From Marsupella aquatica (lineage: Eukaryota; Plantae; Marchantiophyta): a DNA stretch of 64,000 nt. Where the stretch lies: contig OZ316896.1 of the NCBI GenBank assembly GCA_973895155.1, positions 1,798,001-1,862,000 on the forward strand. Reading direction: 5' to 3'. Numbering within the stretch: position 1 is the stretch's first letter; the number at the start of each line of letters is the position of its first letter. Shown in pieces: positions 1 through 46,990 of this stretch. Both the position numbers and the translations under genes were made by a program. A model generated the notes under the pieces. That model made no database searches, had not been told where the DNA came from, and saw nothing but the letters and a program-made list of their open reading frames with translations.

Positions 1-185
1 GGCTCGTTTTAGTGCACACTCCGTAAGTGAAAATCCTGGCCAATAGCTTGTATTTTGATAGCTTTCCCTGTGGGATGGTGGGGTCTTTTGTTTTGTGTTG
101 AGAGGTAGCCTCACCCGCCATTTCCAGTCTTCATTTATTTATTTTGGCACTAGCTCAATACCCATGCGTTGCACAAAAGAAGTCA

Positions 186-530
186 TGTCGGCCAAGATGT
201 CGTTGAGAAAAAAGATGTCGTGTCGGCCAAGAGGTCATTGAGAGAAAAGATGTCGTGTCGGCCAAGAGGTCGTGGAGAGAAAAGATGTTGTGTTGGCCAA
301 GAGGTCGTGGAGAGAAAAGATGTAGTGTCGGCCAAGAGGTCGTGGAGAGAAAAGATGTTGTGTTGGCCAAGAGGTCGTGGAGAGAAAAGATGTAGTGTCG
401 GCCAAGAGGTCGTGGAGAGAAAAGATGTTGTGTCGGCCAAGAGGTCGCTGAGAAAAAATATGTCATCTTGGCCAAGAAGTCGTTGAGAAAAAAGATGTCA
501 TGTCGGCCAAGATGTCGTGTCGACCAAGAC
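186..530. repeat. 35-bp tandem repeat array (~9-10 copies), degenerating to about 750
   Basis: Unit TGTCGGCCAAGAGGTCGTGGAGAGAAAAGATGTTG recurs at 221, 256, 291, 326, 361, 396 and 431. The repetitive ORFs at 155-577 are a by-product. Confidence 0.95.
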
Positions 531-3500
531 ATCATTGAGGGAAAATACCCGTGCATTGCACAAAAGATATCCTTCAAGTCATTTTGCCAAAGAAGTCATT
601 TTGCCAAAGATGTCATTATGTGAAAGATGTTGATAAGAAAAATATGTCATTTTGCCAAAGATATTGTGAAGTAAAAGATATTATAAAGAAAAAAAAGGTG
701 TCGTTTCATCCAAGTTGTTATTATGTGAAAGATGTTATGAAGTAAAAAGTCAATGAGAGAAGGAGCAAGTTTTTTTCTATGTTTGTTTTTTACCCAAAAT
801 GCCCTTGCATTTGAATGGCGACCACTCTATACATTGGCGCAATGTTATATTATCGGTTTCAGGTTTAAGGTTTTAGGTTTAGCAAAGATGACCATTCTAT
901 CGCTATCTTTTCAATCCCCGTGCATTGCATAAAAGATGTTGTTTGGTTAAAGATGTTGTTGAGAAATAGCTCATGGTGCAAAAGATATCGTTGAATAAAA
1001 AATTGCACAAAACTTTTTGTTGAGTGAAAGATATCATTGTGCAAATACTGGCTACGGCACCCACAAAAGTTCCCTTTTTCCTTTTTCTCCTTGCACAAAA
1101 AATTCTTTGAATAAAAGATGTCATTGCACAAACCACTGGCTATGACAACCACAAAAGTATAACAAAATGAGAGGTGTTTTTCCCCCTTTTTAATCTTTTT
1201 CCTCTTATGTTCCTTTTAAACCTTAACCTCCCCCTTTTCTCCATTTCACCATCACTCCACTCGCTCGCCGCCCCCTCCCTCCCCACCAGTGCGCGACTGG
1301 AGCCCTTCGAGGGGCTGCCCTACATTGCCAGTGCCCCTCGCCCGACACCTTGCCATCAACGCCCGTGTCATGAGTTTCACTATGTCTTTGGGCCTTATTA
1401 CTTTTGTTTTTCGGCATTGAAAATGATAGTGCAAATGACTCTAAAAATCAACACAAATATTGGGAGAAACAATTTTTTATTGATCAAGTGACTAAAATGT
1501 TATTAGCAATTAAACTCCTCTTAACACTATTATACAAAACTATGTTACACATAATATTGAATGTGTAGAATACTTTAAGTATGTACAATACGGATCATGG
1601 AGACCTGGAGGGAGTATCCTCCTTGATCCTCGTGCATTGATTCTCGTGCATTAATTAAAGTCTTTCACTTTTTTGGGGTGTCTCGTGTGATTATTTGGCT
1701 TGTCTTGGACAATGGTGTAACTTTTTGTGTCACACTAAACTCAATTCACACTTTGATTTTATTATTTACATTTGATCACATTTTTTTAATTTTTATGCCC
1801 TGCAAATTTGAACTACGACCACTCTAAAAAGTGGCGCAACCTTGTATTATAGTTTAGGATTGAGTGTCTATTGCTCTAGACAGAGCTCAGGCCTTCACTG
1901 TCTATGACAGGCTGAGAGGGTTGAGTTTTTAGGGCTTCTAGTTAAATATCTCGTTGTGACCCTATTATGCGCTTTACCAGGGAATCTACCAGGCCTTTTG
2001 GGATTTCCTGGGTTTCTCCTTTGTTTTTCCCCCTCTGTTGGGACTTAGGCCTTTGAGATAGTGACTCACAATGAGGGGATCTGTTCCTTTGCAGTCTTAT
2101 ATGTAGGTGCTCCCTTTTTCTGACCATGCTGCACCTTTCTTTAGCATTTTTTATAACTACAAAAGGGGCTCCCCTAAACGACAAATATGTAAGTTTTTAT
2201 TTATATGATTATAACCTTTGGTGGGAGCACAAAATACTATATGTAATTCTTATTGTACTCAAGCTCTATATATAATACAAGTAAGTTGTGACGATACAAT
2301 TTTGAAATTAAGATGGACAATACTGTGCACAATAAGGTTTGGGGCCTTCTGGATTTTGTTGGGACAACTAATTGCTTAGATCTTAGTGTTTGCTGGATTT
2401 CTCGATCCATCTCTTTGGCTGTCATTTGATTGCTTTCACTGTTTCTCCAGTTATTCCTTGGCTTCAAGTGAAAATGTGTTTGGTCTTTGAGTGGTCCTTG
2501 ACACTTTTTTGGTCTGGACAGTTTCTCCCTATTTAATGGGGTTTTACTTTTCTCATAAGTGTTCCTTTCAAGAAAAAGAAGAAAAATATTTGGGGCCATT
2601 TAGGGCCCCCATCACAATACACAACTAACGTTCTGCCACATACGGCATACCAGTTAATGAGTTAATGTTGCAATTATGCAAAGGTCACTGGGGTTTAGAG
2701 TAGTCAACTGTTCTGGTGGGGGCTGTTTAAAGGTGACATGGTTCAGGTGGGGGCTGTTTAAACGTGACATGAGAATCCTACGTGAACATAGATGACAACT
2801 TCACTAATTTGACAAGGGGCAGAGAGAGGATGAATGACTGCTGGTTGTGGCACTCTAGCAGCAAGAAGAATTGTGTGTTAGTTATCTATAAGTACAAATT
2901 CTGAAAATGTGAGCTTTTCACGCAGTGCAAATGACATGTAAGTGCAAGGCCCTGGCTTCTTGCAGGGAGTGTGCACTTAGGAAGGTTAGACTCTAGAGCT
3001 TTCGTAGGGTGTCTCATAAACAAAAAAACTGGCACCTCACGGGAGTCCCATGAGGCAATCAGGAGCTCTGCAACAGGGTACAAACGGGCCATTAGTTTTG
3101 AGGGTACGGACAAGTGAGTGGCCTCATGACACACTGAATGCTATTGTGTTTGCTGTGGAATTGGGGCCTCATACTGTCCCGGGTGTGACTGGTCGGGACT
3201 CATAATCGGTGTTCAACGAATCATAATTGTTGTCCCGAATCACAACAAACCTGGGCACACTCAAAGTTGGCGTATTTGAGACCTTCTACTGCAATCAGTC
3301 GAGTAGTCTACAGTAACATTTTGGACTGTTTGAGTATGAGACTCCAGAGGAAACAAGGAACTCACAGGTCCCGAGGGCATACGATACTTCTATAATTAAT
3401 CTCTTACAAAGGTCGGTATGCATGAGCAAGGTTTGCGCAACATCATCTTTGCTCTCAGTGACTTTAATTTGGATTCGAGATCATAAGGAAATAAGAGCAT

Positions 3501-4197
3501 TGCTGAGACCGAAATCTCGATTGATAGAACCAGAGAAGAAGGTTGATAGCTCGGTGGACCTCGCTCGACTGCGTCTACCAGTACTGTGAAACAACCACAT
3601 AGCTGAATTGCAGTTTGTACAGGAACGGAGGACGGTGCAGAGTCCATCTTACTATTAAAGCGCCAACTCAAGTCTACTTTTAAGAGCCTAGGTCTAGAGT
3701 GAAGCCTCTAGACCGTAACTCTATGGCCATCATGTGCATGGGAGAAACTCATGACATGATGTATGTACATACCAGTTTTCCTTGATAATTTCTATATGCA
3801 CTATGGCCCCACCACAACATATGTGCATTAAAAAATACTCATGTGCACATAAAGGAGAAGGGTATATTATATATGACTATTAAAATGATGAATTTTTTTT
3901 ATCATTTCATTGACCTTCAAAGAATATGGATAGAAAATATATTTTGATAATTTTTTATTGTACTCTCTGCTATTTACGTTCAAAGAACGGGTAGTCGGGG
4001 CTAGTGTGTGTCAATGACGACAAGGAAAAATGCTCCCGATGCCAACACGAACTCGATGAGGTTCAGGTGTATACTATGTATAGGCATCAAATCTTAACTT
4101 CAGTGTTCTCTTTTGTATTCCTTTGTCAAGATCACATATCTTCCCTTTCTGGGATAAGGGAGAATTACACTATTTACAGTACTGCTCCATGTCTTAG

Positions 4198-4554
4198 GTT
4201 TAAACTCCCTATTGCCTCACTAATAGAGGCAATAGGCGTGTCAAAGTAGGGTCCTAATTGAGTTACTGCTAAGGACATAAAATGCTTTTATGACTGGGAC
4301 AAGAATGTTCCCAGATAAGGATGGTATGTCCAAACAGTTTCAGCCAGCTAAGGACATAAAATTCTTTTATGACCGGGACAAGAATATTCTCCACAAGGAT
4401 GCTATGTCCAAACAGTTTCAGCCATAAGACCTTAAAGCAATGCTCTCACACGCCCTAGTAGGGAGTTCTGGAAACTCAGAAAATAAATTGTTTTGAGTTA
4501 TACCCGTTTCTTAGATCAAGTGGCTGTATTAGCAAGGCAATAGGGAGTTTAAAC
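4198..4554. mobile_element. MITE-like element with ~28-bp terminal inverted repeats and an internal 79-bp tandem duplication
   Basis: GTTTAAACTCCCTATTGCCTCACTAATA (4198-4225) pairs with TATTAGCAAGGCAATAGGGAGTTTAAAC (4527-4554) with 2 mismatches. Internal repeat copies start at 4268 and 4347. No clear TSD. Confidence 0.55.
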
Positions 4555-4970
4555 AATTACTGTAGTACTCTTATGTTAATTTGTTCCAAAGGGACCTGTC
4601 GGACACTTAACAAACCACTTTTTGATATTTTACAACTTTAAACTTGGACGAGCCCTTGAAGTCATTGGGTGGACACTCCAACTTGTTCTGCAGATGGGTG
4701 CCCACAAACAGTCATCTTTTTATTGCAAACTCGTTCCGTGTGCTCTCTATGGTTTAGGTAGATCATGGTACTACCTCAAGGAGAAGAAGACTAGGTAACA
4801 ACCTGCCACACCACTACTGGAATATGCTTACCATGATGACTCAAATTTATCCAGCTTGAGATTTACTGCCAGGACTTGAAACAAACCTTTTCTGTTACAT
4901 GATCACCCATATGGTTGTCCGTATGGAAGAATTGTATACCACACTCATATGTAATGTTTACGTCTATTTG

Positions 4971-14423: not shown

Positions 14424-14564
14424 AGAGACTAGACAGGAGCTACAATGGCAAATGATGAGAAACCTACTAGTGAGTCAATTAATATAAGGAGTTTTGAGAT
14501 CAATACAATGAGTCATCAAGCGAATCACTCATGAAAACTTGATGTTGAGCCCTGCGGCAGGCCA

Positions 14565-15588
14565 ATATCTATCTTTTTTATCGAATTATTGTCCTCTCAA
14601 AAAGTTTTCAAATCCAAAATTCACAAAAATCCAATTCAAATGTTGAAGCTCAAAACTTTGATCATATTCAAAATCTATCTAGTTGTATCGCCAACGATCC
14701 AAAACTCGAGCTCGTTGGCTCACGATTGGTAACACCTCAATTTCTTATTCAAAACTTCGTAAAATGATCGACTCCCTAGACTGAGCCAAAACCCAGGCCT
14801 TAAATATACCTCAGAAACAACATCATTGCCCGACAAGCCATCGCCAGACGGGTTTAGAATTCAAGAGTTGGACTCTTGGTTGCCCAAAGATAAATCATTA
14901 GCCCTTCACATTCTTTCCATCAAATTGGTTATTTTTCTTTAAAATCTATTGGAGACAACGAGTCGTTCTGCCCTTATCTCTGTTCTCCGTTTCAGTTTCA
15001 ATCTCTTTCTTCCTTATAGTCTGCATCATCGTCATGACAATGCGGGAAATTTGATCAATCTCATTGTTATCATCCATCTCGCCTGATATCGCGTGGACTG
15101 AATGTAGGGGCTACCTCGGGCAAATAGGTTATTTCTAGCTGTGATCGAGACAAATAATGAACACAATTCAAGGCCCAAACTTAAACACTTTATTTTCTGA
15201 AAGCTTCGTGATCAATACAATAGCTCTATGGTGGGCCACTATCTATCTTTCATCGAATTATCGTCATCTCAAAAAGCTATTAAATTCAAAATCCACAAAA
15301 ATCCAATTCTTCAAGTGTTCAAGCTTAGAACTTCAATCATACTCAAAATCTATTAGATCGCATCGCCAACGGTCCAAAACTCAAGCTCGTTAGCTCTCGA
15401 TTGGGAACATCTCAATTTCTTATCCAAAACTCCGTAAAATGATTGATCCCCTGGACTGAGCCAAAACCCATGCCTTAATTATGCCTCAAAAATAATATCC
15501 CCACATGACAAGCCACCACTAGGTGAGTTCAAAACTCAAAACTCGGACTCTTGGTTGCTCGAAGATGAACCATTAGCCCTTCACATTC
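14565..15588. repeat. Two diverged ~350-bp direct repeats (about 14565-14915 and 15239-15588)
   Basis: Collinear shared blocks ATATCTATCTTT, CACAAAAATCCAATTC, GACTGAGCCAAAACCCA, GGACTCTTGGTTGC and CATTAGCCCTTCACATTC. Confidence 0.85.
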
Positions 15589-16449
15589 CATTTACTTCCA
15601 ACTTCCAACTCCTCAGCTTCTGCATGTGTGGAAAGTTTCTTGTTGCGGAAATATTATAACGAAGTATTAAACCTAAACTTTTCAAATATTTTGAAGCATT
15701 CTAAATGACAGAATAAAGTCACTTAAAGAAGATGAAAAAGTTAAGGACGTAAGAAAATCAGTTTAAGCCAACAAACTATTTTTCACTGAAGGATCCTTTT
15801 GAAATCGACAAATCATTTTCACATCTGAAAAATCACTCCGGCGTTTTAAGTTGAATTCTGATTCAGCATCTCTTAGACCATTTTCACTACTTTTTCCCTA
15901 AATTGAACTCATTAGATAGAATTTAGCTTAGCTAAAACTAGTTTAGCCATCATCATGAGTCTTAGCTTAGGAAAGTAGTTGAGACAACTCACCTCTTCAA
16001 ATCTTCAATTGATAGTTTGAAGGTAATTTAACAATCTTTTCAAATGTCTTTGATTTGTGAGGGAGCATTACATTTGAATTCCCATGCAAAATTGCTTTGT
16101 CATTTTCTCTGGAAATAATTTGTGACTACTTTGGGTCTTTTCTTCATGCCAGGTTGAACTTAGAAGGAAGAATCGTAGAAATAAGAAAATGCACCACCAA
16201 AATTTCACTATTATTCATTTTTTTCTCGTGCTCTTACAAACTTTGGAATGAATGAATGCATTTTAAGGAAATATTTCTTCGGTTTTGTATGGAAAAATAT
16301 GAATAAATTTTTGAAATCTAAAGTTTAGAGAACTGTAATGAAATCCCTAATGTAAAACCGATCTCTGTTGAGTATAAAAAATTTAGGAATGAAGCTAAAA
16401 TCAAACTTTTATTAAGAAAAAACGATAATCTAAGAGTTTCTATGTTAAA

Positions 16450-19400
16450 ATGATTGACATGGTCAGTATCACCAGGGTTTTTAGAACGTGGACACCAATC
16501 CAAATGGGTATAGAAGTATTCCTGAGGGTGGCGGAGTATTGCATCAGAGTTCTTTTCCCAATAATTGTCCTCTCCCGAATAAGGGTCTTCACCATCCTTA
16601 AAGACCCTAAGTCCTCCTCAAAACGGATACCCAGATACACATATGACTTTACTCATTCCAAAGTTTGTCCTTGTAGCGTGAAGGGCTCATGTTCACCGCT
16701 GTAATTGAATACCATGACCCCCGACTTGGCGGGTCCGAATTCAAGTTCCCATAGTTTGGCCCAAGCGTCGGTTTGGGCGAGGGCCCGACGGAGGTTACTT
16801 TCAGTTGCTGCAATCCGCGCAATGTCATCTACGAACAGGAGGGCGAGGAGCCTTTGCAGGTCCAGTCCTGGAACCCCGATGCCCAGGTCCCCCCCTTCAA
16901 CAATGAAGTCATTGATGAAGATGTTGAATAGAAGAGGGGACAATGGGCATCCTTGCCTCACCCCGCGTCTGACTTGGATGTTATCCGTGAGGTGAGGGCC
17001 GACTATTCCAACAATCACCGCCGATTGATAGAGGGACTGGATAAAGAGTAGACACTTGCCATGTATCCCTGCACGCCGAAGTTTGAAGAATAAAGCCGAA
17101 TGGGCCACTAAGTCATAAGCCTTGCGAAGGTCGAGGAACGCAACCCACGTCTGAAGTCCCTGTTCAGATCGTCTAAGGATACACTCCCGGAGTGCAATGA
17201 CTTGAGCCATCGTTTCCTGGCCTTTCCGGAACCCAGGCTATGATTTGATAAAGAATCCTAACTCCTCTAATTTCCGTGACAAGCGCTCACTAACAATCCC
17301 AACCGCCAACTTGAGGAGGACCTCGATGAGGGCAATCCCTTGGGTTTTCTCCGGGTCCCTAAGACCTTGACCCTAAGACCCTGACTGTCTTTGGGAATGA
17401 CACAAACCCAAGCAACGTTGTGGTCAAAGGGGACCCCATCCCTGAATATAGAGTTGAGGATGCGGAGAATTACCTATGTAAAAAAGGTCGGCGCAGGTGG
17501 GATAAACTTTGAGCAACTAAAACACAGATCTTTAAGGATGATCTTAAACCACTCAGCAGGGAATTCATCCGGGCCAGGATAACGTCCGCCTGCCATTCGG
17601 GCCAGGCCACACCCAAGTTCCTCTAGTGTGATGGGGCTGTTGATGTCCCACAACCTGGTCGCTGCGGGATGCTAGCTTCGCGTTATCGCCAAAGGTCCTC
17701 AATGTTCGGCGGCGGTATATAGGCGTACAGGGAGTCCAAATGCTTGTGCCAAACCGCAATGATGGGATCCGTCTCAACCTTGAGAACCCCATCAGCCCCG
17801 ATGACAGGGCTGATCTGCGAGGCGGAGTAGTTATGTCCGTTCCCCGAGATCGCGCGAATCCATCTCCAGAATCCCCCAAAGTCACACTCCTGGATCAAAG
17901 AGATGCCAACCTCAAGGTGGTCATTGAAGCTTTTGTTCCTTAAAGTCCGGACCCGATTGGTACATCGGGTCCAAATCTGGAGATATTGGGTGTATGCCAA
18001 GGTACGCTGAGCTCCCATGGGGAGCCCAGAATAACGGATGAAAAGGGAATGGTGCCTCCTTAATAGTCGTCGGAGCAAGAGGTCCAAAGCCCTAATCCTC
18101 AATGGCCGCACCGGCCGGATGAGGCGAGTTGACTTAGCCACCGTATTCATGATTTCAAACACCTTGCCCGTCAAAGGTGTGTTCTCTTGGAGCAGCCGTT
18201 CTCATCTTCTATCTCGCATTAAGCGCTCAGTATCTATGAAATGCAGGCCCCTTTTGTCGAACCGGTTTCTGGACGGTACCACGTCCTGGTCAAGGGTCGT
18301 CAGCTCCTTGACCTTAATCACAATCGGATAGTGATCAGCGATATCAATTGTATGGTCAACAGTGGGGGCCAAGAGGAAACCCTTAGCCAATCGGTTGGCA
18401 ACGCAATGGTCCAAGGAGTATGACACCGGGGCAATGTCGCTCGTATCCTGAGGATTCATCCTGCTATGGTATGAGCGCGCGACTGGGTGTGAGCCAGTGG
18501 AGAGAAGGGGCCAGATTGGAAACTAGATCAGCCATGTTCTCCGGATGACAGTTGAAGTTTCCCAAAATGATAAAGGATCGTAGTGGATACCGCCCGATAA
18601 GCGATTGGCAAGCCGCCCCCAACCTTGCAAGCATGTTTGTTCGTGCATCCGCCTCGACTCGGATGCACGGAACGTACACTGTAGCTATGAGCCAGGTACG
18701 TTGAAGCAACCCCAAAAACGTAATTACCGCAATAATGAAGTTGGGATCCAAAAAGTGGATCGCAGAGCGAAGTCCCTTCCTGATCGCCATGGCAACTCCC
18801 CTCTCGCCGGGGCGGTCAGTTTTGGGCAAAACAGTGACTTCAAATATTCCAAGACATGGAGGGCGTGACGATGGGAGTAGTGTTTCCTGGAGCCCAAACA
18901 CACTCCACTCATCCTCCAAGGCTTGGTGCCTAACTTGTTCTGATTTGGGCCGGAGGCCATTGACATTGAGAGACGCGAATCAAATTTGGACGAGTGGGGC
19001 CAGGGACTTCGCCCTGGGAACGGTCGAGCTGGTCGCTAAGAGTTTGCAAGGGGGCGGGGGCCGCCTCCCCCTACAGTCCACTAGGAATACTTGGGTAAAT
19101 AACTGCTTAAGATGAGGGGCCAAGGTAACAAGAGCATTGGTGCGAGCCGCCATGATAAAGAAGTTCTTCCCCCGACGAAACCGTCTTTTCAACACAAGAA
19201 TGTGCGGAAGAAGGTTCGCCAGGAGCTTTGCTTCGAGGAACTTCCAAATGACTGGCTCACTCCATGATGCGCACGGGTCAATAATTTTGAGTATAGATAC
19301 CCCGCCTGCCCTTTTTGCTTGGGCCAAAGTGGGTCGCTTCATCGTTTCTCACACACAGAAGGAGTCCGGGTAAATGTTGGAGCCTGCTGATTCGGAACAC

Positions 19401-19721
19401 CCCTATTTCGCACGGGTCAAAACTAGGTTTTCTTGTTTATGGTACCTGCACAGACAAGCATTGTGACATGTTCAGTTAGCAGCATGTTCAGGTGGACCTA
19501 ACCAAATTTCTACGGGCCTACTCCTACCTACCATCCTATCTGAAAAAGGGGAGGCATCCATGAGTAAGGGACCAAGTGACCCAAGGCTTAATGCAGATGA
19601 TGCAGAGCCATCTTTCCACTCTCAGTGTTGGGGCAGTTCTCCATCCCCGCATTCAGCCTTGGGCTGGTGGCTATTAGTCTAAGTCCAGCTCCCACCATGA
19701 GGGGGTTGCCACCTGAGGAGC

Positions 19722-19722
<1 letters not shown>
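16450..19722 (-). mobile_element. Single-ORF non-LTR retrotransposon (APE endonuclease + RT, RTE/RTEX-like layout), decayed and 3'-truncated
   Basis: ORF from ATG 19342 continues in frame past one TGA into APE motifs FASLNVNGL, GLQET, GERGVAMAI, TVYVP and ILGNFN, then SLDHC and ADHYP after a frameshift. RT motifs: GFRKG, FLDLRKAYD, GVRQGCPLSPLLFNIFIND, LFVDD and YLG (16440-17250). Confidence 0.92.
19666..19722 (-). ncRNA. HDV-like self-cleaving ribozyme at the 5' end of the LINE
   Basis: Minus strand reads GGCUCCU CA GGUGGCA ACC CCCUCAU GGU GGGAGCU GG ACUUAGA CUAA UAGCCACC. This gives P1 (7 bp, G1.U wobble), P2 GGUGGC/GCCACC, P3 ACC/GGU, a 7-nt L3, P1.1 GG/CC and J4/2 CUAA with the catalytic C. 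Confidence 0.82.
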
Positions 19723-19779
<57 letters not shown>

Positions 19780-19812
19780 TCGTTTACCCGTGCTTGGTTG
19801 AATTTTTTCACT

Positions 19813-19846
<34 letters not shown>

Positions 19847-20056
19847 CGTCAACATCCGCAGGGACCATCGCAATGCTTTGTTTTAATTAAACAGTCGGAT
19901 TCCCCTTGTCCGTACCAGTTCTGAGTTGGTTGTTCACTGCCTAGGGAGAGCCTCCCCGTGAAGGGGAGATGTTCTACGCCCGTCGCCCGGTCGGCACGCG
20001 GCGGTCCGCCCTCGCCGCGCGAGCAGCTCGGGCAGACCACTGACAGCCTACAGGGT
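19723..20056 (-). rRNA. Orphan 26S/28S rRNA gene fragment (~335 bp), including the R2 target sequence
   Basis: Reverse complement gives CAGAACTGGTACGGACAAGGGGAATCCGACTGTTTAATTAAAACAAAGCATTGCGATGG...GGGAGTAACTATGACTCTCTTAAGGTAGCCAAATGCCTCGTCATCTAATTAGTGAC, the conserved eukaryotic LSU sequence with a few substitutions. Confidence 0.96.
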
Positions 20057-20639
20057 CAAGCCGCAAAAAGCTTTCCAAATCCGTCAAGAAGTTTTGAATC
20101 TAACATGCATAAAAAATTTATGATCCAAATCAAGTCACAAAAATATCCAACTTCTCAAACGCACAATTTTTTTATATAAATTTTATTGATTCCTAATCAT
20201 TTATTAAAAAAATATTAATTTAGAAGTCACTTAGGAAGATCTAGACTCTTCCATAGTCAGGGCGTGATTTATTTATTGTTGACCAAAAGTTATTATTGAT
20301 TATTCCAAAGTTTGTCACATAAATTTGATGATTGATCTAAATTTTTTTACAATGATATTATGAGTAACAAGTTCAATCTTAGTACCTTGCTCAAAAGATG
20401 ACTCAAAAAAAGTTCAAAGGTCCATAGAAGTTACTAAAAGAGTTCAATGAAAAATGTTTTAGTTACCAAGACAAGACGCGGAATCATTGAATTATAACAT
20501 TCAACTCTCTTGACAACAACCAATAAGATATTTGAACAAAATTGAAAAATGCGATCGATTTTAGGTCTTAGTTTTCTGAATCAGAAACCAAAATTTTTGA
20601 CGATTTTTTTTATTTTTTGATATTTTAGATTTTGGTTTG

Positions 20640-21180
20640 TTCGTACGATCGTACTGGCGTACCGGCGTATCGCCTTGTACCGCCTAGTACCACATCGTAT
20701 CTGCGTACCATCATGTACTAGGAGTACTTAAATATTCGACGGTTTTTCGGATAGGATTTTAAATTTGACAGGTTTTTATTTTTGACGTGTTTCAGATTTT
20801 GACTTGTTAGTACAACCATATCGTGACGTACTTGCGTACCTGCATACTTGCGTACCTACGTACCGCCTCGTACTTGTGTAAAATCAAGTACCGAATTGTA
20901 CCTCTTGTGCATTTGGAAAAACATTCGTATCAAATGCTAGTTTTACCATCATTCTATACCTTGACGTTTCATTTGTACATTGTACACTCTGTATCTTTTC
21001 TAGCACCTCTTGCACACCATGTACTTCCATAGCTTGGTGTCCTTGCTAGTATATCTTTCATATTGTCCTTGCTAGTACATCTTTCATACTGTCTTTGCTA
21101 GTACATCTTTCACACCTTTTACCTGTCTAGCTTTGTGTTCTTGTTAGTACATGATTCACATCCCGTACCTGTCCATCAGT
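20640..21180. repeat. GTAC/CGTAC-rich low-complexity repeat region
   Basis: Dense GTAC motifs, plus a ~28-bp unit TGTCCTTGCTAGTACATCTTTCA repeated three times at about 21037-21112. Confidence 0.7.
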
Positions 21181-26162: not shown

Positions 26163-29100
26163 CTACTTGTGATGCAATTGCAAAACCTGCAATACGTCAC
26201 GGTGTCTAGAGAAACTCTCCAAAGGAATCACTTTGGTAAATGCGTTAGCCGGGTTGAGTTTATCATCAATCTTGACTAGCTCAAACAAATTATCAAACAC
26301 AGCTTGCCTGATAAAATGGTACCTGACGTCAATGTGCTTCACTCTGCTGTCCATCACCTGGTTCACAGCAAGGTGGAGCGCACTTTGACTATCACAATGG
26401 AGCTTCACATTCCCCTGTGGCAATCTCATTTTAGTGATAAGTCTATCCAACCAAATCGCTTCTTTTGCTGCTTCCGCAGCTGCAACATACTCCGCTTCTG
26501 TAGTAGACTGAGCAATACACTTCTGCAAAGTAGACCTCCAACTTATGCATCCACCGCCAAGTGTGAACACGTATCCTGTTGTTGATCTCCTTCGGTCCAA
26601 ATCTTGTCCATAGTCAGAATCTACATAGCCAATCAATGATCTAGCATTCTTTGCATTCGCATCAAATAAAAGACCATGATCCACGGTACCCTTCAAGTAC
26701 CTGATAATCCACTTCACTGCTTCCCAGTGTACCTTCCCTGGATTCGACATGTACCTGCTCACCTTGCCCATAGCCATGGCAAGATCAGGTCTAGTGCAAG
26801 TCATCAAATACATGAGACTCCCCACTACTTTGTCATACGGAACCTTTGACATCAACCCCTTCTCTGTGTCATCCGTAGGACAGAACGCTGATGATAACTT
26901 GAAGTGTGGAGCCAACGAGGTACTTACTGGCTTGCTATTCCCCATGTTGAACCTTGCAATTACCTTCCTCGCATAACTGCTCTGCGTCAACCATAGCTTG
27001 CCAGCCTCCAAGTCCCTAGTGATCTCCATACCCAAAATCCTCTTAGCTGGCCCTAAGTCCTTCATCTTAAACTCTGCACTAAGCAGTGCCTTGAGCTTAA
27101 CAATCTCAGACCCTTGGCTGCAATTAGCATGTCATCCACATAAAGTACTAAAACAATGAACCCAAAGACAACATTTTTCACTGGTTTCAAATACACACAA
27201 GGGTCAAATACACTTCTGTGAAAACCTTGTGACCGAATCCAATCGTCAAACCGTTTGTTCCACTGTCTTGGTAACTGCTTCAACCCATACAAGGATTTCA
27301 GCAATCTGCAAACCAATTCCTCTTGTTCTCTCTTCACAAAACCTAGCGGTTGTCTCATGAAGATCACCTCTTCCAATGTGCCATAGAGGAAAGCTGTGAC
27401 AACATCCATCTGATCTAGCAGCAGACCAAACATTACAACAGTACACAATAGTCGTATTGTAGAGTACTTAGCAACTGGTGAGAAGACCTCATTGTAATCC
27501 ACACCTTTCTCTTGTGTGAATCCCTTTGCTACCAACCTAGTCTTGTAGACCTTCGATCCACCTCCTATGGAATTATCCTTCAGCTTGTAAATCCACTTGC
27601 TGTCCACCACTTGCTGACGCTTAGGCAGCTTAACAAGCTCCCAAGTTTTGTTGTCCTTTAGTGACTGCATCTCTATTTGCATTGCTGCAGTCCACTTCTA
27701 CTTCTCCTTTGAAGCACTTGCCTCATGAAATGAAGAAGGTTCCCCTTCTTCCAAAATTAACGCATCACCCTCATCATCAGCTGCAAAATCATCCTCTTGC
27801 AGTTGAGATGAATCAAACTACTGTCCATACCTTGGTGGAGCGCGTACAGTGCGACCAGATGCTCTTCTAGCCAATGACTCCGGTTGATCTGCGTGTGCTG
27901 GTACAATTTGAAGCTCAACAGCATCCACTTGCTGCTCACCAGCATCAACAAACTCCTCTGGTTCCTTTGGCACAGGAACCAGCTCCATAATTGGAGCAAC
28001 TCCTTCTCTCCGGTCATGCACCTCATAACCAATCTCCCCCTCAACGAGATCCGGGATAAGAGATTTTCCTTTGTTAGTACGGGAGACCTGAGTATTCTCC
28101 CCCTCCTTCAATAATCTGGATTCATTGAAGGAAACATCCCTACTGACAACAAGCTTATAGGCAATAGGATCCCATAGCCTATAGGCTTTCACACCACTCT
28201 GGTACCCAAGAAAAACACATTTCTTGGAGGTAGGATCCAACTTGGTCCTATTCTGCTTTGGTGTGAGAGCATATGCATTACTTCCAAAAACTACCAAGCC
28301 ATGATAGTCTGCTTGCCGCTTATAGCGCATCTCAAACGGCGTTTTGAAATTGATAGCACTGCCCAAAATTTACCAAATAAGCTGCGGTATTGACAGCTTC
28401 TACCCAAAATTCTTGTGGTAAACCTGATTGGCTCAACATACTCCGTGACCGCTCCAACAGTGTCTGATTGAGCCTCTCAACGACACCATTCTACTGCGGA
28501 GTATAAACTATGGTGAGATGGCGAGTTATCCCCTGTTCTGAACACTACTTTTCAAATTCCATTGAAGTGTACTCCCCGCCGTTGTCTGACCTCAGACTCT
28601 TCACCCTTGTATCCAAACACTTGATCGTGTTTCCAGTCTGATTCTCCACCTGGGCCTTCCACTTCTTAAAAATGGACAAGACATCAGACTTATGCGTCAT
28701 GAAATAAATCCACACAAATCTTGAGTAATCATCAATAAATGATACATAGTACAACTTTCCAGAGTGTGAGGGAGTCGGGGATGGACCCCACACGTCACTA
28801 TGTATGTACTCAAGAACCGCTTTGGAACGATGAGTTCCAACACCAAAAGCACGACGATGTTGCTTTCCAAGAATGCAATGCTCACAAAACTCTAATTTAC
28901 AAGATTGCAAATCAGAAATGAGTCCATTCTTCCGTAAGATAGCCAAACCTCTTCTCACTCATGTGACCTAGCCGTGAATGCCACAGTTGAGTCATCTCCT
29001 CGTGAGACTTGGTTACATTGGCCTCTCCACATACAGTATTGCCCTGTAACACATACAAATTCTTTTGTCTACTCCCCTTCAAAATCACTGTCTCTCCTGA

Positions 29101-32239: not shown

Positions 32240-33102
32240 AGTCATTTGTGCACTCTTCTTTTTGGAAGCATCGGTCACAAAATAGTCTACCAACCTTTTC
32301 CACACTTTATCATCACAGCTTGTTGGTGGTGGCATATCTGGCTTCTCCCCACCTTCTTTCCATGCCTTGTGCATCCTCCATCTCTCTTGTTTAATAATCT
32401 TACTTGCTGTACTTTCCAAGCATGCAATGTCCACTCCATCATCACTGCCCACATAATTCCATCGAGCAGCAACATTTTGACAAACCATCTTCCAATCTTG
32501 GGCATGTTGTTTTTTAAAATTAATAATACTCACATCCAACCAACGTAAAACTTTAGCTTTCAAATTAGCATGCCATCGATTCTTGCGAGGACACTCAACA
32601 TCCATCCATTATCTGTCATTCAATTTTACTGTCCCTTTCTTTGTTACTTCCCCCTGTGCACTGCTCTCTGTAGTACTGGGGGTGTAATGGGCACCCCTTG
32701 ATTCACCTTACTTGGAGTTCTGAAGTCACCTTCACAAAGCCATTCCCATTGCCAAACATTCATGTATCAAACAGATGCAATTACAAGCTTGTACCTAGCT
32801 AGGTGGCAATCATTCATCACAAAACATATATGCAATCTGTACAAACAAGTCTTTACCTCCAGGGGACCACAAAAGATAAAATATACATATACCTGCACCT
32901 CCACCTCCACCTGTAGGCATCTGTGCAGGGACAAAATTCTGATATTGTTGTGACTGTTCGTCACCTGCCCAACCCAGTACATGCTTCTTTTCTAGTCATT
33001 ACGTACTCACTTTATAGCATGGATTGACAACATCAACATTCTTCATGACTTAGTAAATTGGTAAACTTGCTATCCATATTCAAATTTACCTGACCCCCTT
33101 CC

Positions 33103-36062
33103 ATGCTAGTGAAGAAGGTCGGGTGTCATCACCTGAGCCCTACTCATAAAGACAAGATACAAGGAAAAAATCTATGTAGCAGACAAGGAAATGGCAGCAA
33201 AATCCTCGAAGAAGACATACCAGAAGAAGAGTCGGTAGGAAGAAACGAGTACCCAACCGACATGGGGGAACCAGAGGCACAGCCAGACGAGAGGCCAGGG
33301 ACCAGATTGAGCCAGCGGTCGCGCATACATTACAAGGCATTTCATGGGAGAGGAGATGAGGATCCGGACGAATGGTTGGATGATTTCGAGGGAACCGCTG
33401 CAGCAAATGGAGAATCGGCCATCAAGATGCAGATTCTTCCCGGCCTGTTCAAGGGTGAGGCTAGGCCTTGGTACAGAGCATTAGATGTGGAAGATCAAGC
33501 CATCTGGGATATCTTCAAAACACTCTTTGTTAAGGAGTTTCGACCCATTGGAACTTCAGAACTAGCAGTGCTGAAGTTGGGACAACTTCGGTTCAAGGAG
33601 AACAAATCCTTCAGGAAGTTCTTGCAACGCTTTCAGAAACTGGTAAGACGTACAAAGACCAATGCATCTGAAGGTATGCAACTTCAATGGTTGGTGAATG
33701 CTTTGCCACAGAAGATGAGTTTTGCAATTAGGAAGGAGAACCCGGAGACTTTAGCCGAAGCAATTAAGGATATTCAATTATACATTAATGCAGATATCAC
33801 AAGCCGGAAGAAACAGCTTAAGTCTGAGAGTTCCTCATCAGAGGAGGGATCACCCCATAAGAAAAAAGATAAGAAGAAGAAACATCCCAAGAAGTCTAGA
33901 AGTGATAAGTCAAGCTTGGATAGTGGGAGTAGCAAGAGTGAGTCATCTTCTAGTTCTGAAGAAGAAAAAACTAGGAAAAGGAAGGGCAGAAGGAGAGGGA
34001 AGACGAAAGTCAAGATGGAGGCTAAGCCACCAGATAACATCGTAGCCCTTACCGAGCAACTTAAGGCTATCATTGCAGAGGTAAAACCAAAGAAGAAGGT
34101 AGTACAGGAGGATAGCTCTGTATGGTGTGCCTTATGTTATAAAACCGGACACCATAAAGATGCGTGTCCTAAGCTTAATACTAATCATGTTCGGCATGTG
34201 GCCGAGATCAGACCATGTCAGGGAGAAGTAGAGTACTTTTTAGGAGATGCCGCTGATAGTGTTTTCGGCATCAGTGAGACTAGAGCACGAGACCTATCCA
34301 ACAGACCTGCATCTCTGTGGTCAGGGTTAAGGAACAATCCAGGAGAGATGTATCCTCGGATTATTCAGAACCCGTCAGTACCTCCTAGGCCGAATGTGCA
34401 AAGATTTGCGGCGTGCTATAATTGTGGTCAACCTGGCCATTTTGCTAGAGAATGCCCGAATGCACGCAAACAGGGTGATGGACAACCAGCTCAGCTATGT
34501 ATGGGATGCCGACAGGAAGGTCATATGCTAGGGCAATGTCCTACTTGGTTGGCAGGCCTGGCCGCAAATCATAAGCTTTTGCCGATCAAGATCTTACCGC
34601 CAGGTACTACCCCCGGAGGAGTTCAAATCAACCACATCGAACTAGGATGGCAAGAGGATGCCGAGGCAGAGTTCGTACCATCTGCTGATGAGGCCGAAGC
34701 CCTATCAACCTTCTCAGAGGAGGATTTAGATCATGATTGCTACCGGGTCTCTACTCGATCTACCAAAAGGAAGGAAAGGTGGGATGGGCTGGCCAAAAAT
34801 AAAGGGAAGGTTACGGAGGAAAGGATCGACTCTTCGTCAACATGAACAGAAGGAGAAGGGAGGGCTCCGGCAATACAGGTAAGCCATGAGCCCACCCGTG
34901 AAACCAATCCTTCACAAGATAGCGACTTCAATCGAGATCATCCTAAGTTGTTCTACCCCTCTGTTACGGCTAGTGTTAAGGAACAACTAAGAGAATTAGA
35001 AACCCTGGAGAATACCGAAGCCATTGCCAAGGATGTAAAATGAGCAAAAGCATTGTTTGCTTCGGAAGACCCAACAGCTGTGGAGACTAGCATGGCAAAA
35101 CTGGCCGAATCCAAGACGGAAACACCACCAGAAGAGAAGCCGATTGTTCCCTATGACCTGGCTAAAGATGTACTAGAATCTAGAGTCTCGGCAACAGTAG
35201 GTCAACTATTGAAAAATAGCCTGTATTTCCGGAAGCAATTAAGGAAGGCTATTCTCGGCAAGCCGAGATTACCCAAGGTAGCAACCAGATCCGACGTACT
35301 AATGATAGAAGAAGATCAAGGAGCCCCAGCATTACCATTAATGATTCAAGGAGAATTATTACTACGGGTACCCATCGATGGAGGATCAGGGGTATGTATT
35401 ATGATTGATTCAACAGCAAAGGGTGGGGTCTAACACCGGAGATGACTGGAAGAGTGTTGAACATGGCCAATGGATATCAGGTCATTCCGACGGGAGTGTT
35501 AACCGGCATCAAGACAGAGATAGGAGGTATCTTCTTTAGCATTAACTATGTAGTAATGAAGCCGGTAAATCCTACGTCATTCCGGCTATTGATTGGTAGG
35601 CCATGGCTGTACCTAGCCAAGGTAATAGAAGATTGGGGTAAAAAGCAGTTCACTTTCGGGACCCCCTCTATCACGGTATCCTGGGACACTAAGGATGACC
35701 GTAGGAAAAGCATAAGGGAAGTAGATGGGTACGATAGTGGACTGGAGTCAGCCGATGAAGTACGTTGGTTAGAATGCCTCACTAACCTAACCGAAGAAGG
35801 TGTCTTTGGACCAGAGGTAGCCCCCAACGGATTATGGCAAGAACCAATGGAAGGTGACTTGGAAGAAGAAGACGAAGAGGTCGAGGACTGCTTTACAATA
35901 GAATCCACCTTTTTAGCTGCAATTCCGGAGGAAGTAAAGGATGTAGACCAATTGGATGAAACGGCTAAGTGGGGAGCAGTAGCAGGGACAGTGGATTTTC
36001 TGCAGGCGTTGTGGCAGAGCCGACGGGGTCCACAACGCCATCGATCATCGGCAAGGAATTAA
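33103..36062 (+). pseudogene. Gypsy gag + aspartic protease (likely start ATG 33262), with two in-frame TGA stops and one frameshift near 35420
   Basis: Retrotransposon gag FHGRGDEDPDEWL and GEARPWY, three CCHC knuckles (CALCYKTGHHKDAC, CYNCGQPGHFAREC, CMGCRQEGHMLGQC), and protease PIDGGSGV...LLIGRPWL. Confidence 0.88.
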
Positions 36063-39000
36063 ATACCAAGGGATCGGCATACAAGCTGATTACGAGGGCA
36101 GAACAAATCGAGGCCCTATTAGAAGCCGAGAGAGCACAGCGGCCTAACTCTCAGGAGCAAGAGGTGGATGAGATGGACAAACACGATCCAGAGCCAAGGC
36201 AGGAAGGGGAGCTGACCACTAATTCAAAACCGAATAGACCGGTAAGGGGACAATCTATGGACACCAAGGAAGGGACCGACTCGGCTAGTCCAGCCGAGAT
36301 CCCAGTTTATGGAGGTATGAGATTAGAGAGACTGGAAGCCGAACTGGACCCGAATTTGAAGAAGCAGATTAATATGATCCAAGCACGGCAATATCGGAAG
36401 CTCGACTTAGGAGAGGGAAGAGAACTGAACTTAGGGAGAAACCTAGCACCTGAGCTCGAGAAAGAGATCAGTGACTTATTGATTGAATTTCAGGATGTGT
36501 TTGCATGGAGTCACCAAGATCTAAAGGGAGTAGATCCAACACTAGGGGAACATCGAATTGATCTCATGTTAGGAGCCAAATCATTTCGACAACCAATTCG
36601 AAGGATGAACCCGAAGTATTCCCTGCTGGTCAAAACAGAAATCGACAAACTAGTGGAAGCTGGATTCATCACTCCAGTCTTGCATTCAGACTGGGTGTCT
36701 CCAATTGTGATAGTTCCCAAGAAAGCTGGACCCGATGGTAAACCCAAGATCCGGGTTTGTCAGGATTACAGGAAGCTGAATGAAGCAACATTAAAAGACC
36801 ATTTTCCTTTACCGTTTACTGATATGGTACTAGACATGGTAGCCAGTCATGAACTATATTCATTCATGGATGGATACTCTGGTTATAACCAAATCAGGAT
36901 TCGGCAGGAAGACCAAATCAAGACGGCCTTCATCACGGAATGGGGGATCTATGTCTTCAATCGTATGCCGTTTGGACTCTGCAACGCACCAGCTATGTTC
37001 CAACGATTAATGGTGAACATTTTTCATGATTACTTGAGAAAGTTCATGGAAATCTTCATTGATGACTTTGCAGTATTCGGGAAGGCATCGAAACATGCTA
37101 AATACCTCAGGAAAACCTTCATGAGATGTAGAGAGGTGGGTCTCAAGTTACACCCAGATAAATGTTTTTTTGCAGTAATCGAGGGGGTGCTACTAGGTCA
37201 CAAGGTATCAAGGAAGGGCATTGAGATTGACAAAGGTAAGCTAGCAGTATGGCTAGATATCATGCAACCTAAGAACATAAAGGATGTAAGATCCTTCTTG
37301 GGATGCATTGGTTACTATCGCCGGTTCATCAAGGATTTTGCCAAGCTAGCTTTACCATTAACCAATATGCTCAAGGCAGGAGCAGACTTCGAACCCACAC
37401 CCGAACGAGTCACAGCGGTGGTAGAATTAAAGCAGATGTTAGTAGAGGCCCCAGTCATGATAGCACCGGACTGGAACAAAGATTTTCATGTTTTTATAGA
37501 TGTCTCGGGCTTCTGTATTGGCTCAGTACTAAGTCAGTTGGATGATAAAGGAAGGGACCATCCCATATACTTCGCAAGCCGTCAGCTTGCCGATGCCGAA
37601 CGGAACTACTCTACCACGGAAAGAGAAGCATTAGGAGTCATTTATTCTTGTAAAAAGTTTAGGCATTATTTACTAGGGTACAAGGTAATCTTTCATACTG
37701 ATCACGAAAGTTTGAAGTACCTAGTCAATAAGCCGGACCTTACAGGCAGAGTAGCAAGATGGATTTTGCTATTACAGGAGTTTGACTATGAGCTGAGGAT
37801 CAAGTCGGGAAAGTTACATGCCAATGCCGACTTCTTTTCAAGGATCACAGGTAAACCTACCACGGATTGCATCGATGATCGATTCCCCGACGAGGAGCTA
37901 TTCGTTGTGGAAATAGCTGGTACATGGTACCCTGAGATTTTACAATTTCTCAGCACTTCCAGATTACAGCCAGGATTAAGCCGAGAGCAAGCCGCAGTCT
38001 TTGTGCGGAAGGTCAGACAGTATCAGTGCATTAAAGGCATACTGCACAAGCATGGAATCAACGGCATGATTCAAAGATGTTTGGAAAAGAGAGAGGTAAA
38101 ACGAGTCCTACGGGCCATGCATGGAGAGGAGGCCGGAGGACATTTTGCCCCAGTAACCACGTCTAAGAAGATATTAAATGCCGGTTACTGGTGGCCCACC
38201 TTGCACAAAGATGTCTATCAGTTTATCAAACAATGCGATCCTTGTCAACGAGCGGGAGGACCAAGGGCGTCCACCAGGCATCCACTGCACCCTATTCTAC
38301 CTCTGGCACCATTCGAGAAGTGGGGTATTGATTACATTGGACCTCTGAAACCACTGACCCACCCTCGACGGAACAAGTACATAATCCTGGCTACGGATTA
38401 TGCAACTAAATGGGTAGAGGCCAGACCAACAACGAAGGATGATGCAATTACTACGGCTAGATTCATGTATGAGCAGATCTTCACCAGGTATGGAGCACCC
38501 CTAGAATTAGTTAGTGATAGAGGAACCCATTTTTTGAATGATATAATTAGTCGTTTAAATGAGCAGTATTTAGTTAAACATAGGCCTACTACTCCCTACC
38601 ATCCAAAGGCAAACGGGTTGACAGAACGAGCAAACGGAATTATAGGAAAGATATTGAACAAGACAGTAGCTCAGAACAAACTCGATTGGGATGATAAATT
38701 GTTTGCTGTTGTTTTTGCTTACAATCTTGCCTATAAATCCACTACCGGTCATACACCCTTCTTCTTAACCTTTGGACAAGAAGCCCTGGTACCCATGCAA
38801 CTTGAGATACCGACATTTCAAGTTACAATTGAGGAAAGAGCCTCAGCGGAGGAGAGCCTAAAGGAGCGAGAATATAGGTTAGAAGCTTTAGAGGAAGCGA
38901 GAATGATTTCAGCCGAGAGAGTAGAATATAGACAGAATATCATGAAGCAGCAGTATGATAAAAGGTTAAAAGTAGTTAGTATTCATACCGGTGATCTTGT

Positions 39001-39235
39001 GCTACTTTATGACAGTAGGTATAGTAGGTTTCCAGGAAAGCTTTACACTCGCTGGTTAGGACCCTTTAGAGTAACCATGATGTTCCCCAATGGCTCCGTA
39101 CAATTGGCCAACATTACGGGAGAGGTATATCCAGTTCGCATCCATTATGACCGCCTCAAGAAATACTATATGGACAAAGATGAAGTTGTTCGCGAGGACG
39201 CTTCACAATTAAGTGGGGAGCTATGTGATGCCTAG
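35969..39235 (+). CDS. Gypsy pol (RT, RNase H, integrase with GPY/F motif), uninterrupted, in the -1 frame relative to protease
   Basis: QDYRKLN, MDGYSGYNQI, MPFGLCNAP, FIDDF, DVSG, NYSTTEREAL, TDHESL, HHCC zinc finger, WGIDYIGP, SDRGTHF, NGLTER and WLGPF. Confidence 0.95.
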   Translation: MGSSSRDSGFSAGVVAEPTGSTTPSIIGKELNTKGSAYKLITRAEQIEALLEAERAQRPNSQEQEVDEMDKHDPEPRQEGELTTNSKPNRPVRGQSMDTKEGTDSASPAEIPVYGGMRLERLEAELDPNLKKQINMIQARQYRKLDLGEGRELNLGRNLAPELEKEISDLLIEFQDVFAWSHQDLKGVDPTLGEHRIDLMLGAKSFRQPIRRMNPKYSLLVKTEIDKLVEAGFITPVLHSDWVSPIVIVPKKAGPDGKPKIRVCQDYRKLNEATLKDHFPLPFTDMVLDMVASHELYSFMDGYSGYNQIRIRQEDQIKTAFITEWGIYVFNRMPFGLCNAPAMFQRLMVNIFHDYLRKFMEIFIDDFAVFGKASKHAKYLRKTFMRCREVGLKLHPDKCFFAVIEGVLLGHKVSRKGIEIDKGKLAVWLDIMQPKNIKDVRSFLGCIGYYRRFIKDFAKLALPLTNMLKAGADFEPTPERVTAVVELKQMLVEAPVMIAPDWNKDFHVFIDVSGFCIGSVLSQLDDKGRDHPIYFASRQLADAERNYSTTEREALGVIYSCKKFRHYLLGYKVIFHTDHESLKYLVNKPDLTGRVARWILLLQEFDYELRIKSGKLHANADFFSRITGKPTTDCIDDRFPDEELFVVEIAGTWYPEILQFLSTSRLQPGLSREQAAVFVRKVRQYQCIKGILHKHGINGMIQRCLEKREVKRVLRAMHGEEAGGHFAPVTTSKKILNAGYWWPTLHKDVYQFIKQCDPCQRAGGPRASTRHPLHPILPLAPFEKWGIDYIGPLKPLTHPRRNKYIILATDYATKWVEARPTTKDDAITTARFMYEQIFTRYGAPLELVSDRGTHFLNDIISRLNEQYLVKHRPTTPYHPKANGLTERANGIIGKILNKTVAQNKLDWDDKLFAVVFAYNLAYKSTTGHTPFFLTFGQEALVPMQLEIPTFQVTIEERASAEESLKEREYRLEALEEARMISAERVEYRQNIMKQQYDKRLKVVSIHTGDLVLLYDSRYSRFPGKLYTRWLGPFRVTMMFPNGSVQLANITGEVYPVRIHYDRLKKYYMDKDEVVREDASQLSGELCDA
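35993..36052 (+). promoter_or_regulatory. Programmed -1 ribosomal frameshift signal (slippery heptamer + H-type pseudoknot)
   Basis: G GAT TTT (35993-35999) is in the correct phase, followed by a 5-nt spacer and a perfect 10-bp stem GGCGTTGTGG/CCACAACGCC (36005-36014/36030-36039). Loop GCCGA pairs with TCGGC (36048-36052). Confidence 0.78.
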
Positions 39236-39338
39236 ACAGGAATCACTCGGCCGGTTAAGTGGGTAAAGCAGGAAGGCACCCTAGGAACACCTTAGTATAG
39301 GGACAAAACAAGGAAAATATAAACAATTAGGGGCAACC

Positions 39339-42300: not shown

Positions 42301-42971
42301 AGAAGGAACTAGAGGAGGCACGCAAGGACCTGGATGAGACCCAGGAGGAGTTGGAGGAAATCACGAGGAAGATGGAGAACCTCCAGCGGCGGGCCGACAA
42401 CCAAACGGAGCGGCTGAAGAAACAAGCCGCAGTATTTAGGTGCTTGTCTTCATCAGGCCCAACTCCAATTGGGGCAACCAAGTTACCAGGAGTGGTACTG
42501 GCCGAAGAAAAAGCCGCGCCAACTGCACCAGTGCCGGAGGTAAGTGGGAAGGGGAAGGGACCAGCTGCCGAACCAAAAAAGAAGAAAAAGCGGAAACCTT
42601 CAGGGTCAAGGAGTAATCCGACTCCACAAGCCGTGGTGACCAAAGAGGTAGAACCAGCACCATCCTCCGACATGAATACGGCAATAGATCCCGCTATGAT
42701 CACAGGTAGGGATGGTGCGGCCCAAGCCGAACTACTCAGTAAGGAGGCCAGTATTCCAGATCCGCCTCTTGAGCAGGCCGGGGAGACCGTAGCCGAGGCT
42801 GAGGCCGTAACCGATTCTCGAGCCGATGCCGACGCCGATGGTGGACCCAGTCAGGCCGATGGAGAGTTGACTCAGTCAAGGGCAGGTAATCTGTCAGGGA
42901 ATGAGCCTACGGCAGTGGCTGAGGAGGAAGCGTTGGGGGCGTCCATTAAGGATCCACCACCGGTGTCGTGA
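39339..42971 (+). pseudogene. Gypsy extra ORF downstream of pol (~1210 codons in one frame, two internal TAG stops), with a plant-transposon-like domain and long coiled coil
   Basis: ORFs 39339-39737, 39741-41363 and 41367-42971 share one frame and are separated only by TAG codons. A heptad-rich E/K/L/Q region spans ~41680-42420. Confidence 0.75.
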
Positions 42972-45799: not shown

Positions 45800-46990
45800 G
45801 TTATACTCCAACCTACTACAGGAGAGAAAGAGATGCTCCGAGTATGAAGCTAGTTCTTGTGATGGAACAAGAGGAGAAAATTGATGTTGGTGTACCTCAC
45901 ATTCAACTAGCAGTAGCAAAAGATCAGGCTTAATTATCTACTAGAAGAACTTCTAGTCGTTCTACTAGAGCTTCTACTAGGTATGGACAATGGGCCGGCA
46001 GATTCATCTAAACTAGATGATATTGACATTGCGTCTCATATGGCTTTGATCTTGGGAAAAGGAGAACCTTCTTTGTATCATGAGGCAAGTGCTTCAAAGC
46101 AGAAGCAGGAGTGGACTACAACAATGCAAACGGAGTTGCAATCATTGAAGGACAATAAGACTTGGGAGTTGGTCAAGCTTCTGGAAGACCAGCAAGTGAT
46201 GGACAGCAAGTGGATTTACAGGATGAAGGATCAGTCCTCCGATCAGTCCATGGGAGGTGGATCAAAAGTCTACAAGGCTAGATTGGTAGCCAAGGGATTC
46301 ACACAGGAGAAAGATGTAGATTACAATGAGGTCTTCTCACCAATTGCTAAGTACTCTACAATTTGGCTATTATGTGTACTTGTTGTTTTATTTGGTCTAA
46401 TGCTAGATCAAATGGATGTTACAGCTTTCCTCTATGGCACCCTGGAAGAGGTGATCTTCATGAGACAGCTGCTAGGTTTTGTGAAGAAAGGGCAAGAGGA
46501 TTTGGCTTGTAGATTGCTGAGATACTTGTATGGGTTAAAGCAATCATCAAGGCAGTGGAATAAGCGGTTTAACGATTCAAGGATCCATGCACAGGGTTTT
46601 CATAGGAATGTGTTTGATCCTTGTATGTATCTTAAACCGGTGAAAAATATTGTCTTTGGTTTCATTGTTTTAGTACTTTATGTGGATGACATGTTTATTG
46701 CGGCCAAGGATAGATCTGAGATTGTTAAGCTCAAGGCATTGCTCAGTATAGAGTTTAAGATGAAGCACTTAGGGCCAGCTAAAAGGATTTTAGGTATGGA
46801 GATCACTAGGGATTTGGAGGCTGGTGCGCTATGGTTGACACAGAGCAATTATGCAAGGAAGATAATTGCAGGTTCAACATGGGGGATAGCAAGCTAGTAA
46901 GTACCCCGTTGGCTCCACACTTCAAATTGTCATCAGCTTTTTGTCCTACGGATGAGATAGAAAAGGGGCTGATGTCAAAGATTCCTTACC
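45800..46990 (+). mobile_element. Ty1/copia RT fragment related to the element at 25606-32239
   Basis: SLKDNKTWELVKL, KARLVAKGFTQ, LYGLKQ, LYVDDM and LGPAKRILGMEITRD are near-identical to the complete copy. Truncated at both ends. Confidence 0.92.

Follow-up and report, generated by a model that had tools for sequence, protein, structure and literature searches.

The same stretch of the 28S rRNA gene is used by the retrotransposons R2, R1 and R4; R4 is a restriction-like endonuclease (RLE) element, and R1 has two ORFs, including a gag-like ORF1. R2 combines a single ORF, ending in a C-terminal RLE, with a 5' HDV-like ribozyme at the 28S junction, in which P4 is absent in the silkmoth (PMC3774820, PMC5035012). 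R1 carries an APE endonuclease, inserts at +74 (PMC2048585) and is believed to be transcribed from a promoter of its own (PMC3414825), R4 makes a 13-bp target-site duplication (PMC6895275), and cleavage falls at the element 5' end in R4, Dong, Baggins and L1Tc (PMC3774820). RTE, Baggins and L1Tc/ingi are APE LINEs whose 5' end carries an HDV-like ribozyme (PMC6765202, PMC4035085), and minimal HDV-like ribozymes such as theta, reported almost only from phages and beside tRNAs, do without P4 in fewer than 60 nt (PMC10879173). According to PMC5035012, R2 is not found outside animals; a 2024 review table conflicts with this in placing R2 in the 28S genes of rice and maize, credited to Kojima and Fujiwara 2004 (PMC10946416), and otherwise names for plant rDNA nothing but LTR elements, insertions in spacers and one LINE associated with a spacer. 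A literature search with few subscription papers or Repbase reports in its scope listed neither an APE LINE that targets 28S in bryophytes or other plants nor an HDV-like ribozyme from a bryophyte.

Here we describe a locus of the liverwort Marsupella aquatica at which a LINE headed by a compact HDV-like fold adjoins a 28S fragment. The window, that is, the whole 64-kb stretch of DNA analysed, contains the following features of the locus.

19722..20119, minus strand: fragment of 28S (LSU) rDNA that covers Rfam model positions 1919-2311, the match being convincing from about 20075 on
19666..19722, minus strand: minimal HDV-like ribozyme of 57 nt, predicted cleavage 5' of G19722 (G1), catalytic C at 19677, C20 at 19703, A25 at 19698
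19716..19722, minus strand: 5' strand of P1, partner strand 19693-19687
19707..19713, minus strand: 5' strand of P2, partners 19673 and 19671-19666
19694..19706, minus strand: P3-L3-P3, with C.A where the U20.G25 reverse wobble is usual
19674..19686, minus strand: GG of P1.1, a 7-nt linker in the place of P4, and J4/2 (CUAA)
19343..19665, minus strand: rest of the 5' UTR (whole UTR 380 nt), its ribozyme-adjoining part unaligned in a paralog
16455..19342, minus strand: broken single ORF with an N-terminal domain of about 115 aa, APE from about 18979 and RT at about 17370-16630
16200..16440, no strand assigned: repeat of high copy number, unrelated to the LINE, which stops here

The nested double pseudoknot that a sequence-only reading had proposed within 57 nt was borne out by the pairing, since P1, P2, P3 and P1.1 can all form and J4/2 is in place. 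P1 is paired at 7/7 positions (19722-19716 with 19693-19687), with the wobbles G1.U (G19722.U19687, at the base of the helix) and U7.G. P2 consists of six Watson-Crick pairs out of six (19713-19708 with 19671-19666) and gains A19707-U19673 past a bulged A, P3 (ACC/GGU) is paired at 3/3 positions, and P1.1 is CC/GG. The CUAA of J4/2 includes C19677 and fits C-N-R-A, L3 is 7 nt long, and the L3 region matches the R2 core CCUCCUCGUGG at 9/11 bases. The 7-nt linker had been regarded as an unusual reduction of P4, a view that does not stand because P4-less ribozymes are already known (PMC10879173; silkmoth R2, PMC3774820). A generic HDV-like descriptor, the search suggested by the sequence-only reading, returned 19722->19666 as its one match on both strands of the window and nothing in 60 Markov-2 random windows of equal size; a second descriptor, allowing a P1 of 6-8 bp, again had this as its sole match in the window. 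The Rfam HDV families gave no match to the window ribozyme at E<=10, a blank that carries little weight because Rfam also missed a canonical example in a distant relative (locus L087, below). Minimum-free-energy folding of the ribozyme lacked P1 and P3 under a model that excludes pseudoknots, and in the same kind of model the upstream 28S sequence folds on itself. G1 is preceded by C, which ranks second among the bases for that position of genomic HDV (PMC1874588). We conclude that 19722->19666 is almost certainly a real HDV-like fold.

The similarity to rDNA had been placed up to G1 at 19722, and Rfam agreed, with 39/39 bases aligned to eukaryotic LSU rRNA up to 19722, model position 2311. 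The LSU match at the Rfam gathering threshold extends to 19697; we read the segment from 19722 to 19697 as local-alignment overrun. The last 28S-matching base is therefore G1 itself, the predicted cleavage position, so that G1 is either common to host gene and element or host-derived. The 5' junction lies at +32, downstream of the R2 site within 28S and not at that site, in between those of R2 and R1. This position falls within the stretch used by R2 and R1, which supports rDNA targeting. The 28S piece is only about 350-400 bp long, AT-rich non-rDNA of 30% GC lies upstream of it, and Rfam found no other rRNA match in the window, indicating a dispersed fragment and no array. It sits among LTR elements, and no repeat linking the two flanks was found.

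Elsewhere in the window, a nearly intact Ty3/gypsy element (33094-42971, plus strand; gag, RT, RNase H and integrase) has two additional long frames behind it, of 541 and 535 aa, neither of which matched Pfam at curated thresholds, and fragments of Ty1/copia RT lie at 26163-27697 (minus) and 45917-46897 (plus). A 358-nt direct repeat of 82% identity, spaced by about 675 nt, occupies 14560-15588, and 21038-21161 holds four copies of a 26-nt unit. An uninterrupted frame of 595 codons at 61960-63747 (plus) belongs to a land-plant family with several liverwort paralogs and no Pfam match. Among named matches, a gene near the LINE has its best one in Calypogeia fissa (72%), followed by Marchantia and Riccia, which makes a leafy liverwort the most likely host. 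A bacterial promoter scan was empty and is irrelevant here.

Downstream of the fold, the LINE has a complete 5' end, as the sequence-only reading had held: the HDV-like ribozyme marks it, with the predicted cleavage at the 28S junction. One ORF follows the 380-nt UTR, with no separate gag-like ORF1. It begins at 19342 and aligns, at 49-68% identity, with residues 1-962 of a homolog of 1279 aa, P0001, and P0001 has an N-terminal APE (Exo_endo_phos), an RT and a C-terminal CCHC-type motif, with the [RK]PD motif of the restriction-like endonuclease absent. Six in-frame stops and three frameshifts interrupt the window ORF, whose 3' end is lost near 16440, where read depth is 460-3190 on the 16200..16440 repeat as against 40-170 on the element just beyond. 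Gone with the 3' end are the tail, the target-site duplication and the downstream 28S; the window copy is dead and no longer able to move. Its RT is 40-50% identical to LINEs of chytrids and of brown and red algae, and none of the 150 representative matches listed exceeded 51% identity. In trees, built with no clade-labelled references, the window RT groups with P0001 (98) and otherwise falls among chytrid and algal LINEs. A search with the N-terminal domain retrieved only P0001 and two weak matches, and a protein cluster atlas gave generic LINE clusters for the element and nothing usable for this domain. The clade may be RTE-X. Marchantia contains LINE/RTE-X (10.1101/827881).

The element thus described resembles R2 in its single ORF and in the ribozyme at a 28S junction, and differs in having an N-terminal APE where R2 has a C-terminal RLE, in a site 32 nt downstream of that of R2, in C.A where the R2 ribozyme has the canonical U.G, and in its plant host. 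It shares with R4 the predicted cleavage at the 5' end, but has an APE and no RLE; loss of the 3' end leaves no second junction to compare with the duplication of R4. We accordingly rejected assignment to R2 or R4. R1 was also rejected: like the window element it carries an APE endonuclease and has its target in this part of 28S, whereas the window element has one ORF, a ribozyme head and a junction at +32. Close in architecture are RTE, Baggins and L1Tc, likewise APE+RT LINEs whose 5' end is defined by a compact HDV-like ribozyme, but none of these is 28S-targeted. The P4-less ribozyme is of theta-like size, but it stands at the head of a LINE in a eukaryote, and its L3 contains C.A.

This pair, C19703.A19698, stands in place of the U20.G25 reverse wobble, a conserved but not absolute feature of HDV-like ribozymes. 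In the antigenomic ribozyme the corresponding C23/A28 change was the only active double mutant; it is isosteric and 232-fold down in k2, and the authors remarked in 2012 that such C/A mutants were not found in nature (PMC3386971). G25A alone abolished or sharply lowered cleavage (PMC3774820, PMC13635239), and the excerpts of PMC9901934 and PMC4908430 hold nothing on a C.A pair. The sequence-only reading was thus right to single out the replacement as unusual, and by analogy with the mutant it predicts that self-cleavage of the window ribozyme is probably slow (PMC3386971). Decay could in principle have produced the pair. About 9% of transition-prone codons in the window ORF (6/70) are now stops, and at this rate two decay mutations both falling on the one isosteric pair are unlikely (an estimated 1 in 1000). 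We therefore regard it as fairly probable that C.A was ancestral in the family.

Four sequencing runs from two studies (X1 to X4) contain the stretch; reads were compared on the element side only, and 32/185 assembled pieces and 40/449 letter differences were listed, none of them inside the ribozyme. X4 returned the window copy with one differing letter over 18719-19720, which shows that this copy is no assembly artefact, and depth in X4 was flat at 120.3, the window copy's own, over 17026-18205. At least two diverged copies were present at near single-copy depth, 83-86% and 79-84% identical to the window copy. Close siblings were not seen among the 32/185 pieces listed; such a loss is what would be expected if an rDNA array turned over. 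Contigs break at 19703 in X2 and at 19723 in X4; exact sharing with another copy was considered as the cause, but these breaks were set aside, as similar ones occur elsewhere.

The second copy (about 81%) bears on the ribozyme. In X1, X3 and X4 its contig leaves the alignment at 19531-19539 and re-enters it exactly at 19666, where P2 has its 3' end, to stay aligned over 48-51 letters (the last-bin depth of 14.5 in X3 represents 51 letters of this contig). Re-alignment at 19666 but not over the adjoining UTR indicates that the ribozyme stretch was selectively kept. In X3 the paralog's contig continues unbroken for about 1.4 kb upstream of the expected G1. If it were joined to 28S, 0.5-17 shared 30-mers would be expected, depending on length and decay, and the unbroken contig suggests that there is no join to near-intact high-copy 28S, although a short decayed piece could escape. 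One paralog is thus apparently without intact 28S upstream.

More distant relatives were gathered by protein homology, giving 160 loci whose best segments were 22-42% identical (the metagenome part covered 2/64 parts); in 62/160 the sequence reached 300 nt or more upstream of the point where the ORF was estimated to begin. Earlier descriptors with P1 fixed at 7 bp gave 0/160 loci when strict and, when relaxed, 33 plus-strand and 26 minus-strand matches that amount to noise. They missed L087, whose P1 has 6 bp and which was spotted by eye before the descriptor was rewritten to 6-8 bp; the rewritten version found the compact HDV-like fold in 1/160 loci on the coding strand, in none on the other strand and in none of three shuffled passes. 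At L087, found by protein homology alone, a canonical HDV-like ribozyme (nt 27-96, plus strand) with the usual U.G in L3 forms the 5' end of an APE+RT LINE that is intact and has a single ORF, the open frame of which (645-4556, 1304 codons) is 27% identical to P0001. Comparison of the two ribozymes over 19 pairs showed 13 to be the same, 6 to differ in both bases and none to differ in one base only, a count that is partly circular because both were selected as folds that pair. Not circular are the discovery of the locus through its protein, the same place of the motif, and the free letters shared in P1, P2 and J4/2. The 26-nt upstream flank of L087 holds no rRNA by Rfam; the window's 28S stretch matched 0/160 distant loci, and rRNA of any kind was found in 0/20 loci tested. 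L087 occurs once in its genome, and its contig, binned in a bacterial genome, is probably eukaryotic contamination. Viral contigs gave no match by protein or by ribozyme core.

Among these loci, L081-L160 comprise 80 eukaryote-type APE/RT LINEs on contigs of prokaryotic bins, probably host or eukaryote contamination. L081, in which no HDV-like fold was found, belongs to the same broad group and is a LINE of full length; it has a poly(A) tail and is bounded at either end by a duplication of 10-12 nt. L086 looked hammerhead-like by eye at 75-115, where a hammerhead scan reported no match.

The analysis shows the fold and its junction with 28S, how the ORF is built and how it has decayed, and that a paralog conserves the ribozyme stretch; cleavage activity, RNA polymerase I co-transcription and site specificity are inferred. 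We favour, with a probability of roughly 60%, the reading that the window copy is a stray relic of an rDNA-targeting, ribozyme-processed APE LINE lineage; the rDNA targeting rests on one junction, the 3' junction being lost. Against this reading count the unbroken paralog contig in X3, the flank of L087 and the other distant loci without rRNA, the presence of the ribozyme in just 1/160 of those loci, and the impaired cleavage of the C/A and G25A mutants. The ancestor would likely have inserted site-specifically in the 28S gene, 32 nt past the R2 site, and likely have been transcribed by RNA polymerase I read-through, with the HDV-like ribozyme cutting at G1 to free the element RNA from the rRNA co-transcript. 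The window copy may be a stray piece of an inserted rDNA unit left outside the array. Alternatively, it may derive from an uncleaved co-transcript that was reverse transcribed and landed outside the array, as a slow ribozyme could let such co-transcripts carry upstream 28S to a new site. Expression of this copy by read-through, as first proposed, is contradicted by its 350-400 bp of 28S, its non-rDNA upstream flank and its broken ORF; such a mechanism could hold for the ancestor alone, on condition that rDNA was the real target of its family, which a single junction does not establish. A fuller version can be offered only tentatively: a family of 28S-specific single-ORF APE LINEs native to leafy liverworts, which came independently to the R1/R2/R4 hot spot and frees itself from the Pol I transcript with a 57-nt P4-less ribozyme whose natural C20.A25 is slow enough for uncleaved co-transcripts to spread 28S fragments through the genome.

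Three other explanations were weighed. A one-off rRNA-LINE chimera, in which a 28S fragment was joined to the cleaved G1 of a non-specific ribozyme-headed LINE by a template jump or by RNA ligation to the 5'-OH, is unlikely, yet it accounts for much: the junction exactly at G1 in the same orientation, a 28S piece that is short, truncated on its 5' side, bordered upstream by non-rDNA and not followed by further 28S, and the lack of 28S flanks at the paralog and L087. U6-L1 ligation chimeras are known. Jumps of R2 onto cellular RNAs are documented in vivo (PMC3414825). The documented jumps involve small RNAs, however, and the chimera needs an internal 28S break within the R-element hot spot of about 75 nt, an estimated 1-2% of the rRNA length. 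A family inserting at random should also have left close siblings, and none were seen among the 32/185 pieces listed.

That same absence of siblings among the pieces listed tells against a chance insertion, in which a non-specific ribozyme-headed LINE of RTE, Baggins or L1Tc type happened to insert into rDNA or a dispersed piece of 28S and its ribozyme frees it from any read-through. What lies upstream of non-specific LINEs with HDV-like ribozymes does vary (PMC6765202), and neither the paralog nor L087 is flanked by intact 28S; to strike so short a 28S stretch would nevertheless be very improbable for the roughly three visible copies, and we consider this account more doubtful still than the chimera. 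A chance fold without ribozyme ancestry could invoke the Rfam blank, the missing U20.G25 and the pseudoknot-free minimum without P1 and P3, but is hardly credible given the empty random windows, a fold that begins at the element boundary, the stretch selectively kept in a paralog, and the presence of the fold in L087 at the corresponding place.

Within the coding region of 28S, R-type elements have so far been an animal story, with no R2 found outside animals (PMC5035012), and plant rDNA is now being targeted with an avian R2 protein (PMC13580325). If true, the relic reading would add another independent origin of rDNA targeting combined with ribozyme processing, with a different nuclease, and would supply a candidate, adapted to plants, for insertion at a safe harbour. 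An HDV-like ribozyme in which C20.A25 is natural would, in turn, test the debated metal-binding role of G25 in an evolved context (PMC13635239).
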